From Eledone cirrhosa (taxonomy: Eukaryota), in the NCBI GenBank assembly GCA_964016885.1, contig OZ024741.1:83328001-83392000 (forward strand): DNA of 64,000 nt, in the 5' to 3' direction. The notes under the pieces are model-generated. The model saw nothing but the letters and a program-made list of their open reading frames with translations. It was not told the DNA's origin and ran no database searches. The first letter of the stretch is position 1. Every line of letters begins with the position of its first letter. The position numbers were made by a program, and so were the translations under genes. Positions 1-56,574 of the stretch are shown one piece after another.

Positions 1-736
1 AAGGTGTTTCCTCAAAAACCAGTATGACTCTAAAAACCGGTTTGTCTGTGTGTTTACATACAGAATAGCTGGCCACTCACAGTAAAGTGATCAGTGAAAA
101 AAACTTGGTACATCTACATATATATACGTGTGTGTATTCATATACATACTAGTATTTCAGTATACATATATGGATGTACATCTTTGACTTAATTGTTTGA
201 GCGTCAGTCATACAAAAGTGAGTTACAAACGAAACGAAATTTAATTTCGTTTCGTTATTTGTTTTTATCGTCTCCGTTGAACCGGTACTTACTCACACTC
301 TATGCAAGTTGGTCTGCCCACTACTAATTTTCATAGAAAAAGCATATAGCGATATGTGCTTTTACGATTCTCTAGAGAGGCCGGAAGATAGGTAAATATT
401 GCTGATGAGTTGTAACAACAACGAAACTAGTTCAATATTCCTTGTCTGGCTTTCTGGAGAATAGAGGAAAGGTGTTTCCTCAAAAACCAGTATGACTCTA
501 AAAACCGGTTTGTCTGTGTGTTTACATACAGAATAGCTGGCCACTCACAGTAAAGTGATCAGTGAAAAAAACTTGGTACATCTACATATGTATACGTGTG
601 TGTATTCATATACATACTAGTATTTCAGTATACATATATGGATGTACATCTTTGACTTAATTGTTTGAGCGTCAGTCATACAAAAGTGAGTTACAAACGA
701 AACGAAATTTAATTTCGTTTCGTTATTTGTTTTTAT
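1..736 (+). repeat. Direct repeat with 468-bp period (1-268 = 469-736), hammerhead in the unique part, ending in (TA)n; non-autonomous PLE/retrozyme-like element
   Basis: The two copies are identical by eye except a122/g590; the window starts inside the repeat. Confidence 0.85.
395..439 (+). ncRNA. Minimal type I hammerhead ribozyme
   Basis: aatattg-CTGATGA-gttg(taacaa)caac-GAAA-ctag-TT-caatatt: 7-bp stem I, G-C closed stem II, palindromic CTAG loop III. Confidence 0.85.
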
Positions 737-1544
737 ATATATATATATATATATATATATATATATATATAAATTAAAGTATAGAAATTATTGTGAGCGT
801 GAAGCCAACAGTATTTCATAATATATATATACACACACACACACGTAGCTGTGACGTGTCATTGCTATTCTGAGCAACAAAAGAAGAACATACTGTCCGT
901 ACCATTCATGTTATATTAACCATCAACAGAGAGGCTTACTCCGTTTGGTTGATGAGACGAAATACTCTAAAATCTTTATCTGATGATGAAGTTTATTTGT
1001 ATAGAGAGCAAAAGCCTGCGGGCTCAAATTAATAAGCGGTAGCGCTTGTCTGATATAGGGTAGTTGATAGGTAACCGGGGTTATATAATAGATCATATGC
1101 AAAATGCTCATGGAATAAAACATCCTTCTAGCATGTTTATGTGTGTTTTGTGTATATGAGTGTATGTGTGCGTGTGTTTTGTGTATACATTAAACGTAGC
1201 ACTAACACAACGAGCTTAATTGTAGCGGTGAGTACGTAAACATAATCATGCATCTATATATAAGTTCCACGCCATGAATATTTTAAGCTGAGATCAGGAA
1301 ACGTCAGTTGAGCAGGTTCATTATACATAAAAATTTCGTATATTTCTCCATAGACAATCTTACTGCAAGCTACGCTATGTTAGTGATACTACTAACCAAT
1401 CCTAGACCACCAAGTTTACATTATATGCAAATGGACATCTCCAGCCGATGTTTTATACGTAATGTTGTAAATATTTAAATATATGAAGATTCATATATAT
1501 ATATGTATATATATATATATATATATATATATATATATATATAT

Positions 1545-2233
1545 TTCGTTTCTGAATTTGTTTAGCAAGATTCTTTATCTGAAAACGTGTGTTGAAACCG
1601 ATATTGTTATACTTTGGGAGGGTCATGTTGCCAGTAAGAAACACACGCACCAGCTGCTTTCACTTCAATTTATTATAATAAATTTATAAGTTGAGGAATT
1701 TATAAATTTCCGGTTGGTTGGTTGGTTCCACAACCGGATGGTTGTTTATATATTGTCAAAGTTCTTTCGTCACACATTATGTGACCTCTTCAGTGACTGG
1801 GATTCTTTTCTCTGTATTTGTGCCTCTACTTTGTGCTGTCCTGCGCCATTTTGATTCTGTGTGTGTGTTGTGTACTCCGTCTGCGCATGCGCCACATCCG
1901 GGTGTCTGTGTGTGTTTATATTCGTTTAATTATTTGTTTATTTACATGTTATAGGTTGGTTGTTTGTTCTATGTGCGTGTGTGTTTTCATGTTGTCCTTA
2001 ATTGTAAGTTGTGATGTTGCTGTTCCACTCGTGTTTTCTATTTAAGAGGTCACAGAATGTGTGACGAAAGAACTTTGACAATATATAAACAACCATCCGG
2101 TTGTGGAACCAACCAACCAACCGGAAATTTATAAATTCCTCAATTTATAAATTTATTATAATAAATTGAAGTGAAAGCAACTGGTGCGTGTGTTTCTTAC
2201 TGGCAGCATGACCCTCCCAAAATATAACAATAT
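1545..2233. mobile_element. Family A PLE-derived foldback element (arms 1601-1790 / 2044-2233) between (TA)n tracts
   Basis: ~190-bp near-perfect inverted arms; head gtgttgaaac..tattgttata..gggagggtcatg recurs at ~28670, 33385, 41570 and 55180. Confidence 0.75.
1755..1797 (-). ncRNA. Minimal type I hammerhead-like motif
   Basis: Minus strand: gtca-CTGAAGA-g-gtcaca(taatg)tgtgac-GAAA-gaac-TT-tgac. Confidence 0.7.
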
Positions 2234-3051
2234 ACATATATATATATATATATATATATATATATATATATATATATATATATATATATATATATATATA
2301 TATATATATATATAATATATATATATATAATATATATCATAATAATAATTATTCAGGTAAATGAACAGTTATATATAACGAATATAATTGTGTCGTGTCT
2401 ATCTTATAATTATATATAGCGTAGGGTCTAGAACTGGATATCTATTGATGATTTGTAACGGTATGTCATACATTTGGATTATGAAAAGTTCTTCCTAAAA
2501 TTGGCCACGTCTGGCAAATTTAGTGAAGGGGATATGTGATTAGGGGCAGCTCAGTAATTAAATGTTACTTTATTTCAACGTCCCCAGATGAATAAAAAGA
2601 AAACTTATACTGAGCGTAATTTGAACTTGAAACATCAATACTAAATACCACAAAGAATATTGACCGATGCTCCGAAGACTGTGTGAAACAACCACCCATT
2701 TTGGATTAAAACCCAAAAAAAGTACCCATGACTCGCTAGGAGTGACGAAGCGGACAGAAGGTTAGAGTGTATGTTTCTTGCATGTATATGCGTGTGTCTT
2801 AGAAGCTCATTCTCTAAGTGAAGTACATTTCTTCGATGTGCGAGTTTGACTCTAAGTGCGTGTTGATTTAACTATGAATGTGTATATGTTCATGCGCCAA
2901 ATGTGTGAGCCATATATATATACATACATACGGGCAGACAGGCACGTACATACGCACACACGTATATATATATATATATATATATATATATATATATATA
3001 TATATATATACGATATTAAACAAATGGAAACTACATTTATAAAACCATATT

Positions 3052-53770: not shown

Positions 53771-55179
53771 TATATATATATATATATATATATATATATA
53801 TATAAATATATATATATATATATTTATATATATATATATATATATATATATATATATATATATATATATATATATATTCCTTAATATGTTAATGGTGAAT
53901 CTTGTTACTTTAGAGTTTCACCTGTGCACTCACATGAACATCAGCCAGGACTGAACATTCAATGGTAGTCATAGAATAAACAGAGGCAGATTCGATGGGT
54001 GCGTCCATGGTGGATGGGTGTTTTTGAATTGGATGTGTATATGTGGAGGGTGATTATTAGTAGGGTATGGATAGTAATAGTGGCATTATTCGGAAGTGTG
54101 GAAAAGGGTTCTATAAAAAGAAGCAAAGGGATATACAATATATGGTGAAGGGGCCGGTACCAAAGGATAGGAGAGAATACGGAGAAAATCAGGAAGGTGG
54201 TGATGAAAACGAAGGAAATAATTACTGACGAAGACAAAAGAAAAAGAAAGGTTAAGGGAAAGAGAAAAGAGTAGGAAAAGAGAACAAGAAAAAAGAAAAG
54301 AAAATAGAAAAAAAAAGAACAAAATATGAGCAAAGAGAAAACAGGGGAGGGAAATGAGGAAATGAGGGAGATAGGAGGAAGAGGGATAGAGTTCTAAGAG
54401 GAGGTATTAACAAGCGTTGACGGTGATGGTAGTGGTGGAGTTAACTAAATGAAACGGGTCAGTAGGTAACTGCTAAAGAAATAGTGCTGCTTATGATATT
54501 GATGAGCGTAGCAGATAGTGATGGTGTTTAAAGCGATAATGATACATATGAGATAAACGTATTAAATAGCAAAAACATAAAAATAGGTGGGTGGTGAATA
54601 TGTATCAATTAATGGGGGAATAAACATTAATAGGTGTGATAGGTATAACAGATTTAGTGAATAGAAGGCACATAATAATCTCATCATCACCTATGTTGGT
54701 GATGAGGAGAAAAGAGTAGAGGTGGTGTATATATGGTGATAATAAAATGAATGGGAATTATTTAATGAAATAGAATCAATGAAAGAGTAGCTTTAGCTAA
54801 AGGCTATTTGGTAATGGTAAGAAGCAGTGAAGTTTTGGAGATTGATAATGGTAATACTTATTGAGATGATGATGAGAAACCTGTGAAGATGGTGTATAGT
54901 TAAATACCTTCCTTCTATTTCTCCTTTCCTTTGCAGTGTCTATTACTGCACACACCTCTCAAATAGACACCTCAACCACATTGCCATGCAATTCTAAAAT
55001 ACTCATCTATCCCACTCATCTGTTGATGAGTCTTCTGCTATTCATACTGCTCTGTCGTTAAGAGTACATTCTTGTAAGATGATCATGTTTGTGCACCGGT
55101 GAAATCTATAATATGGAATATTTAAAATCAATTTCAGTTCCCAGTACTCATTCTCCCGTTCGATAATACCACACAGGAT

Positions 55180-55760
55180 TGTTATATATTTTCATATTTG
55201 GGATGGTCATGTTTCCAATAGTTCCAATAAATAGAAACACGTATCATATGATTTTTAATTTATCTTTACTCGTTAATTCGTCAAAGTTCTTTCGTCACAC
55301 AATCTGTAACATCAATGACTAACTGTTCAATGTTATGCCTCCTCTTCTTTCTGATCTTAAACTTCTATTCATTCTTATCTTTTGTTTTGATGGTGCATTT
55401 TCATTTTTCGTGTCTGCACCTTCGTCTCTGTGTGTGTGTTTCTTTTTGTGTTTGTGTGGATTTGTATATTTCGGTGTATTTTCCCTCTATTCTGTCATCA
55501 GTCGGTAATTTGCGGGCTGTTACTATTCCATTCCGTTTTCTATTATGTGTGTGGCCTCAGTAATGTGTTTGAGTAGATATGATCTTCATAGTAGTACTAA
55601 TGAGCTTTTCTACGTAAGTCTCGCCAATGTCCCTTTAATCTCGTTACTATGCTGCTGGCTGTCTCTCCTATGTATGTTTTGTCTTGTTTCTTCACCGTCC
55701 CTCAATATCTTATTGACTACATTTCTATTTTTTCAGTATATCTGTGGGCTTAGCTTACAG
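55180..55760 (-). mobile_element. PLE 3' remnant (GIY-YIG) ending in a family A terminal repeat
   Basis: NVVNKI..TYIGETASSIVTRLKGHW at ~55625-55725; decayed family A hammerhead at 55280-55319 on the same strand. Confidence 0.65.
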
Positions 55761-56499
55761 GTATATGTTTTTTTGTTTTTTTTTATTCATGTGAAAGAAG
55801 ATATAAACTAATTGTTTGTTTAATTATTACGTTATATACTTTAAATTTATCTTACGTTCTTCGTTACCGTACTATCGTTTAATATATCTGTATTATCCAG
55901 TATTGATCCCCTTTTCATAATTTCTAACTATGATTTACACATCTTCCTATTTATTCCTATTTTTTTTTTTATTTACTTCAATCAAGATTTCAACTTTAAT
56001 TTTCTAATTTTCAACCTCATTACCAATTTTAATTTCCATTGTGAAACGATAATATCTAGACCCTAGAATTAAGTTTACATTCTCTTCTCAGGTGATGGTC
56101 AATACTATTGTCCAAGCATAATTTAGAGGTAGTATTGAAATCTATTAAAATATATACTCACCACTACCACAAAGTTTCGGTGGGCGGCCACTGGACGTGC
56201 GACTACGAGTAAACTACAACTTAGTGGCTAGCATGAACCCTGTGACCTTCTCACCTTACCGGCCTGAATGACGAAAATCTTTTTTTTGGGGGGGAGGGGA
56301 ATGCCTAGGCTAGTTTTGTTGTGTTCTGGAGTAGTAGTAGGATGGTCAACTTCCTTCACATTTGCGCCTGCGCAAAGCTGGGGTGGTGAATTGGGGGTTC
56401 ACAAGGGAACAGGTTAAGGCATCGTGAATATCATCTTTGTCGGTTCCCTTGTCGTGTTAATTTGACTTGAGTGGGAAACGTAACCTTAATATGTAAGAA

Positions 56500-56574
56500 G
56501 CTGTCTGATGAGATCATGGCACTGGGTGCACAGAATAATGTGGTGAATGTCGTCATTAAAATATGTATCACAGC
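56500..56574 (+). ncRNA. Decayed family B-type hammerhead (G12 to A)
   Basis: gctgt-CTGATGA-ga...tt-AAAA-tatgta-TC-acagc. Confidence 0.5.

Follow-up and report, generated by a model that had tools for sequence, protein, structure and literature searches.

What kind of element has left hammerhead ribozyme motifs on both strands of a single stretch of the Eledone cirrhosa genome, and are these motifs more than chance folds in repeat-rich DNA? The stretch analyzed, hereafter the window, comprises 64 kb (G000:C2:83328001-83392000, in an assembly of 3.0 Gb), has a G+C content of 35%, and contains abundant dinucleotide repeats, many fold-back repeats and broken reverse transcriptase (RT) and GIY-YIG frames. 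A first-pass annotation had named 13 hammerheads and several decayed relatives here, ascribing most of them to short non-coding elements mobilized by the proteins of local Penelope-like retrotransposons (PLEs). We find that the motifs are real and that the window is typical of a genome in which hammerhead-bearing PLE ends are scattered throughout. The account that we favor, and hold to be probable, is an ordinary landscape of such ends plus tandem retrozymes that would have been inserted by the same RT/GIY-YIG machinery, of which family A, a tandem array at the left edge of the window, is our main subject.

A hammerhead-like motif was present near each of the 21 annotated sites. Three versions of a type I hammerhead descriptor were used, the later ones refined after the motifs had been seen. 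In the window the loosest gave 7 matches against 0.175 in 40 block-wise dinucleotide shuffles, the second 11 against 0.65-0.68 (100 shuffles; reverse-only and complement-only controls gave none), and the final version 8 against 0.19 expected, with a maximum of 1 in 100 shuffles; the comparison with shuffled DNA that had been proposed with the annotation thus did not yield similar counts. All eight cores passing the final descriptor (402+, 1793-, 3109-, 3233+, 10828+, 32785+, 44382+ and 50630+) are among the 13 named motifs, and in their predicted folds the core boxes, UH site and stems I and II are those of type I hammerheads. The other five are present with changes in core or stem: 28519+ has the known U3-A8 core with just two contiguous pairs in stem I, 24985- and 53596+ carry a C3.A8 mismatch, 42775- is mismatched at the base of stem II, and the core of 8320- is decayed. 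With G-U pairs allowed, loop III, described as usually palindromic, is self-complementary in all passing motifs but 1793- (7 of 8).

A chance origin of the motifs in AT-rich, fold-back DNA is next to impossible. Such a reading could draw on the weak folding z-scores of single motifs (-0.4 to -2.3 for 9 motifs), which are uninformative, and on the Rfam scan of the window, where the single hammerhead match among 150 of the 196 rows (HH9 at 384-455, E 6e-6) scored 37.7 bits, short of the gathering score of 52; most of that listing consisted of matches of miRNA families to microsatellites and fold-backs, discarded as noise. It is refuted by the shuffle counts given above and by a pattern control, the A-type hammerhead pattern occurring 23,560 times in the genome (sister families included) and never in the control. 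Conservation argues in the same direction, 7 of the 8 families aligned having canonical or U3-A8 cores (intact in 18/20 copies of B, 14/14 of C3, 13/14 of C32, 18/20 of C44, 11/14 of C50, 19/20 of E and 7/10 of F), as does covariation in stems I and II, where both sides have changed in 7 of 14 pairs among four A-type sequences, which are few and related.

The motifs are dense, as had been claimed, but this is not peculiar to the window. Twenty fixed-position stretches of 10 kb on 16 contigs gave 20 matches to the final descriptor (0.44 in shuffled DNA), although these come in pairs and two of the 20 resemble chance. Since the sample holds about one motif per 10 kb and the window one per 8 kb, the window is typical rather than special, and a rough extrapolation from the 20 stretches gives ~3x10^5 motifs genome-wide. 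The supposed decayed relatives are of several kinds: 56505+ and 45237- do carry point changes in cores that are intact in most of their genomic relatives, but 41159+ and 41370- are cut off at an inversion junction, and the altered core of 11869- and 14592+ is family-wide rather than individual decay; 41820- and 55315- resemble family B when judged by eye. Several further hammerhead families missing from the window, two of them as inverted pairs, were seen in the genome sample (L248-L267).

To which elements do the motifs belong? The genome was searched with 12 window family ends besides A, 40 candidates being scored out of the hundreds to thousands that each search returned, and upstream DNA was inspected in the best 10-20 copies of each family. 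Copies have a common 3' end at AT repeats and a likeness that fades upstream, as in 5'-truncated retroelements. In families C44, D and F the shared DNA extends upstream into same-strand GIY-YIG and RT sequence; upstream GIY-YIG sequence was found in 3 of 14 C50 loci, and B is preceded by open frames of 679 and 653 amino acids (aa) that contain a CX4CxxC linker as well as RT and GIY-YIG motifs (weak RVT_1 match in Pfam, E 0.0025). C3 ends lie on both sides of a 749-aa frame, 3.86 kb apart, which contains YRDD, YVG and DKT motifs, a CxCX5C linker and RWR at the RWK position; an end stands directly before the open reading frame (ORF) in 18 of 20 loci. Because longer copies of B, C3, C44, D, F and C50 reach RT/GIY-YIG sequence, 10 of the 13 motifs mark the 3' ends of coding PLEs that are truncated on their 5' side and often inverted; these PLEs are of the Hydra clade and the Neptune/Nematis type. 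The link of hammerheads to PLEs proposed in the first-pass annotation is therefore borne out by upstream RT and/or GIY-YIG coding sequence in six families, and its estimate of at least five unrelated sequence groups holds as well (A, B, the C group, D, E and F).

The clade assignments come from sequence motifs. Nothing in Pfam or PDB matched the C3 and C44 ORFs, so that placing C3 in the Hydra clade rests on motifs and by-eye likeness to published sequences (PMC8557442, supplement). C3 carries the marks of that clade: a single ORF with RT and C-terminal GIY-YIG, the CxCX5C linker, DKT, a hammerhead in the pseudo-long terminal repeat (pLTR) and (TA)n targets. C44 has both DKT and CxCX5C, and F the CxCX5C linker; in B and G a CX2-5CxxC linker precedes GIY-YIG, a Neptune/Nematis mark, and G is linked to Neptune-type coding pieces. 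The PLE ORFs within the window are broken (Pfam, run on 16 window ORFs, gave one RVT_1 match alone, in a long interspersed nuclear element (LINE)-like ORF at 37072-37872), and near-full-length open frames lie elsewhere in the genome: by our own count, 30 of 95 scored C3-type protein matches are in stop-free frames of at least 740 aa, and a first look at Hydra-type protein gave 43,880 candidates.

The claim that most copies sit in short, non-coding, non-autonomous elements does not survive these results, and we regard an origin of most motifs from five or more non-autonomous ribozyme-bearing families as very unlikely: 10 of the 13 main motifs are in families whose longer copies enter RT/GIY-YIG sequence, and the upstream coding sequence contradicts a non-autonomous reading for B, C3, C44, C50, D and F. 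It is best served by the tandem families A and E, in which no ORF was found, and by four further families. Family E, whose own 3' tail precedes the unit in 15 of 20 copies and which was seen in two-unit tandems, has no same-strand ORF in the shared region and is, by its layout, a tandem or circularly permuted non-coding retrozyme of ~700 bp. Copies of C32 share more than 1 kb of AT-rich upstream DNA in which no ORF was seen, none lies within 1.5 kb of J in 12 loci, and H and I have none in the DNA examined.

Family A is a unit of 468 bp, found in tandem arrays at 99-100% identity on many contigs, with arms of up to 30 units. It contains no ATG-initiated ORF of more than 20 aa (the longest are of 19-20 aa), and in none of 40 loci does it join a PLE ORF upstream in sense. 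The exact 3' junction pattern with AT repeats occurs 1,967 times in the genome and 0 times in the control, and the hammerhead is retained in nearly all of 284 units. Family A is thus a non-LTR retrozyme: its units are tandem, hammerhead-bearing, non-coding and dispersed over many loci. Folding predictions give a stable circular monomer in which stems I and II are present (-152 kcal/mol, z -9.4 against 40 shuffles). Variants of the A-type hammerhead, considered as candidates for A-like coding PLEs, turned out to be sister retrozymes; two such families, A2 and A3 (L242:4063-8850; L347-L352), have units of ~466-490 bp, the same hammerhead layout and a similar terminal hairpin, and A2 also forms divergent two-armed arrays. 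Sequences at 90-99% identity to A (L013:8100-10000) were met in public runs X1, X4, X5 and X6, labelled as four organisms; the search listed 6 runs with matches, from 4 studies and with no RNA run among them, and is silent on expression either way.

How family A was inserted can be read from its junctions in two sets of loci: 27 arrays chosen by identity, which biases the set to young, long arrays, and the first 40 listed junctions at unit base 468 on contig C1, a set biased to 468 ends, in whose counts L225 and L226 both stand although they are one duplicated segment. In the first set 21 loci are two-armed and complete, among them one with a 12-base stub; 5 others are single-armed and 1 is incomplete. 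In each of the 21 complete loci the arms face outward, with an end at unit base 468 on one side and at 389-398 on the other. In the second, both ends are in view in 37 of 40, the far end lying at 394-398 in 27 (23 arms, 4 stubs), elsewhere in 3, and 7 being single; a second 468 end occurs in none of the 37. The same pairing of a long with a short end characterizes the coding PLEs, in 61 of 62 distinct divergent pairs (B 16/16, C3 15/15, C44 6/6, D 22/23, F 2/2). At both A termini, contigs of public run X1 have loose ends with AT repeats, and their inversion joints vary, so the two-ended pattern does not stem from misassembly. PLEs have been described with an inverted 5'-truncated copy and with a one-ended tail (PMC8557442), and in vitro an anole PLE uses two internal RT start sites, the span between which is the PLE tail, both strands of the target being cut and extended (PMC11167929). 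As its long/short junctions match those of the coding PLEs and these published features, family A was likely inserted by the PLE RT/GIY-YIG machinery. The earlier proposal of mobilization by local PLE proteins is to this extent supported for A by junction structure, though not by the PLE ORFs of the window itself, which are broken. A target duplication of ~10 bases is visible where the target does not consist of repeat alone (L038, L041). In the AT-repeat flanks of A arrays such as L021, L036 and L048, interrupted motifs are repeated on both sides of the insertion, perhaps as long target duplications or through repeated copying of the target.

We propose the following course of events. An array would be transcribed and its hammerheads would cut the transcript to monomers, for which the palindromic loop III would need a dimer fold, and some monomers would be circularized. 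A PLE protein (intact Hydra-clade ORFs offer candidates) would cut both strands of (TA)n, and each DNA end would serve as primer for reverse transcription, which would begin at either of two fixed sites within the unit. Copying would continue beyond one unit, for which a circular template is the simplest means; the two cDNAs would be joined at no fixed position, frequently overlapping by 0-5 bases, and in older arrays unequal exchange would probably bring about later turnover. From the two start sites, a linear monomer cleaved by its hammerhead could yield no more than 304 or 232 bases; 22 of 26 long-end arms and 21 of 26 short-end arms are longer, and the 5' breakpoints of arms are not enriched at the cut (3/117, ~2.7 expected), which points to a circle or an uncleaved multimer as the likely template. 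That it was a monomer circle in particular has, in our estimate, about an even chance. Among 24 arrays with at least 4 full units, 21 are without a minority-shared substitution and 8 without any substitution, and in five loci locus-wide variants cover all units of both arms.

Several observations weigh against this account. Three of the 24 arrays (L023, L047, L201), as well as the one at C1:14.04 Mb, have a mosaic make-up, in some cases with blocks that recur, and therefore reflect later unequal exchange or mixed templates, since a single monomer circle cannot make them. The two arms of a locus are nearest to each other in just 16 of 25 loci (2 ties), and both locus sets are biased in the ways described. 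No coding PLE resembling A was found among all fetched loci, in a genome that was not searched exhaustively. Cleavage by the A hammerhead and the RNA forms are predictions, and the in vitro system showed no difference in start site between strands and a hammerhead cleavage that was dispensable (PMC11167929). Families D and G, finally, have spread with non-canonical cores. In D neither C3-G8 nor U3-A8 is found in any of 20 copies, C3.A8 being the majority state, and in G, C replaces both G8 and G12 in 12 of 12 aligned copies (L268-L279), which are 96-97% alike and keep the hammerhead fold; judged by their bases, neither family has the full set of C3-G8 (or U3-A8) and G12 of the hammerhead core, and both are widespread. 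Their spread agrees with the finding in vitro that cleavage is unneeded for PLE insertion (PMC11167929).

Two other explanations have to be set against ours. PLE insertion from an uncleaved linear multimer of an existing array, with no role for circles, would account for mosaic arrays with shared haplotypes, and it agrees with the literature, in which cleavage is dispensable and unprocessed RNA is the main substrate in vitro (PMC11167929), minimal PLE hammerheads are poor cleavers (PMC4209133), and 8 of 9 frog retrozyme dimers stayed uncleaved (bioRxiv 10.64898/2026.07.22.740005). We nevertheless consider it somewhat unlikely: most arrays are uniform, with variants fixed across all units of both arms, pointing to a monomer bottleneck; the retention of the hammerhead, with compensatory changes among subfamilies, and the very stable circle predicted for the monomer also speak against it. 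Less probable still, and in our view distinctly unlikely, is that about one unit was inserted per arm and long arrays grew by later unequal crossing-over, as the 2026 preprint has it. Arrays of 10-16 units without any substitution in either arm (L017+18, L019, L020, L021), a cross-arm divergence of 0 in L213 and L229, and short arms that at 1.1-1.9 units already exceed one unit are all difficult to reconcile with such growth, which block-repeated variants in L047 (in one arm alone) and at C1:14.04 Mb, as well as shared variants that are scattered along the 30-unit arm at C1:5.74 Mb, do favor.

Returning to insertion by rolling reverse transcription, we tentatively suggest a more specific form, to which we give somewhat less than an even chance: a PLE protein dimer would grip one circular retrozyme RNA at two fixed start sites ~72 bases apart, each primed from one end of a (TA)n double-strand cut, and both RTs would roll, so that kilobase-long divergent arrays would arise in one step. 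On the RNA-sense strand, changes of G exceed those of C (20 vs 7, p 0.03), a post hoc and weak signal. Variation between units in the length of A7/A8 runs was disregarded because assembly error can produce it. The longest arm (L344+L345, G000:C1:5738094-5752750) holds 30 units in 14 kb with interleaved haplotypes, its variants being denser near the inversion junction than at the outer end. For this array, independent misreadings of one damaged template were ruled out as the source of recurrent variants, which travel as haplotypes, and a 7-unit period in the first 10 units was unsupported by all 29.

The positions of the motif-bearing features are collected in Table 1.

Table 1. Features of the window that carry hammerhead motifs, in window coordinates unless a contig is named; all cuts are predicted.
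Feature	Position	Strand	Details
Family A retrozyme array, right arm	1..736	+	468-bp units 269-736 and 1-268
Family A distal end	736		borders on (AT)n; proximal start site: unit bases 394-398, window 662-666
Family A array with its left arm	G000:C2:83326255-83328736		right arm extends beyond the left edge of the window; inversion junction, then left arm of 2.5 units
Family A type I hammerhead	395..439	+	core 402-408; 7-bp stem I; 5-bp stem II; palindromic 6-nt loop III; cut after 432
Family B, 3' end of coding PLE	1545..2233	-	CX4CxxC linker, Neptune/Nematis type
Family B main arm	1545-2044		hammerhead core 1793, cut after 1759
Family B inverted arm	2044-2233		stops 56 nt before distal end
Family C3, two inverted pLTR ends from a young PLE of the Hydra clade	3009..3421		cores 3109- and 3233+; 3233+ cut after 3282
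Family D 3' end	8215..8632	-	core 8320 decayed
Family E	10445..11170	+	one ~700-bp unit and 3' part of preceding unit; internal (TA)n
Family E hammerhead	core 10828	+	cut after 10894; no ORF found
Family G, Neptune-type PLE remnant	11669..14792	-	RT and GIY-YIG pieces 13182-14261; hammerhead-shaped fold 11822-11869 (-)
Family G inverted arm	14198-14792		hammerhead-shaped fold 14592-14639 (+)
Family F, Hydra-type PLE remnant	24898..28606	+	ORF pieces 26419-28141, CxCX5C; hammerhead 28519+ (U3-A8)
Family F inverted arm	24898-25930		hammerhead 24985- (C3.A8)
Family C32, short fold-back of young C-group end	32647..32893		core 32785+, cut after 32835
Family H ends, truncated within hammerhead	41122..41410		41159+ and 41370-
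Decayed B-like hammerhead	41786..41820	-	likeness by eye
Family C44, inverted pair of Hydra-type PLE 3' ends	42675..44570		cores 44382+ (cut after 44430) and 42775- (mismatch at base of stem II)
Family I end	45040..45300	-	core 45237 decayed in window copy
Family C50 3' end	50548..50738	+	core 50630, cut after 50689
Family D, RT/GIY-YIG PLE (3' part)	52138..53771	+	hammerhead 53596-53673: C3.A8 core, long near-palindromic stem III
Decayed B-like hammerhead	55284..55315	-	likeness by eye
Family J end	56400..56700	+	core 56505 intact; GAAA box mutated in window copy

Other elements accompany these. A further Hydra-type PLE remnant at 15580-17972 (-) has RT and GIY-YIG frames and nested inverted repeats at its 5' side, with no 3'-end hammerhead passing the final descriptor. 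At 36021-39198 (-) lies a broken LINE-like element, not a PLE, with an RVT_1 match (E 2.5e-18) and flanking frames, and at 58058-58498 (-) a fragment like the start of a LINE RT domain, without a Pfam match. A dispersed repeat of ~190 bp (4398-5322, 31567-31763, 33786-33978 and 60450-60645) occurs in many copies on both strands, including one long fold-back copy at 4876-5102, with no hammerhead called. Overlapping frames of 229 and 169 aa at 62548-63401 (-), without a Pfam match, may represent a decayed transposon gene, which they resemble. Outside the window, L241:1596-2766 holds a 96-bp tandem repeat with minus-strand open frames of 442-502 aa.

Much of this landscape has published counterparts. 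The minimal hammerheads of PLE pLTRs (PMC4209133) likewise occur as single or opposite-strand motifs in truncated PLE ends, with an extra base before stem II, a palindromic loop III and the U3-A8 variant; unlike there, the apparent density here is about one per 10 kb (~3x10^5 in all, by descriptors that differ from theirs), well above their counts, and two families have family-wide non-canonical cores. Published counts, also obtained with other descriptors, are ~9,000 for Xenopus and ~4,000 for the coelacanth (PMC4209133) and 126,247 for the axolotl (PMC7229834). Hydra-clade PLEs, which include Hydra-1_Obim of Octopus bimaculoides with its (TA)n targets and hammerhead (PMC8557442), agree with C3 in the single RT and C-terminal GIY-YIG ORF, DKT, CxCX5C, (TA)n and hammerhead, as well as in the inverted 5'-truncated copy and one-ended tail. 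They differ in unit length (C3 ~3.9 kb, theirs generally <3 kb), in RWK where C3 has RWR, in tails of 30-40 nt as opposed to 78-88 nt here, and in the very high copy number here, going by the first-look candidates. In the Anolis Poseidon PLE in vitro (PMC11167929), two internal RT start sites downstream of the hammerhead similarly define the tail, and both strands are cut and extended in AT-rich DNA, but the strands did not differ in start site, whereas the two arms here almost always do.

Animal non-LTR retrozymes (PMC7229834; bioRxiv 10.64898/2026.07.22.740005) are tandem, non-coding units of a few hundred bases with one type I hammerhead each, and they co-occur with PLEs, as here. In contrast to family A, with its PLE two-terminus signature and divergent multi-unit arms, the accounts at hand contain no description of junctions, and the preprint puts arrays down to unequal crossover; also, no pLTR homologous to A was found here among fetched loci. 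Mobilization of retrozymes by PLEs from circular RNA was proposed earlier in the same two works, and rolling-circle copying by PLE proteins in PMC4209133 and PMC7229834. PLE hammerheads, retrozymes and the proposed link between them are thus already published, and the junction-level evidence for a young retrozyme is the added part; we found no such evidence in the literature searched, which covered few subscription journals and no preprint supplements.

The window accordingly presents known biology at an unusually high density, and what matters in it is family A. The movement of retrozymes has so far been proposed from co-occurrence and likeness to pLTRs; here a very young retrozyme with ~2,000 loci bears a PLE signature and stands beside intact candidate helper ORFs. 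It names an RNA, two start sites and a target for direct reconstitution, and it sets the birth of satellite arrays by rolling-circle copying against their growth by unequal crossover. Families D and G are natural tests of whether PLEs need hammerhead catalysis in order to spread. If the twin priming of one rolled circle from the two ends of a cut were true, the pairing of long and short ends would be its footprint, and the one-sided tail of all PLEs would be explained as well.

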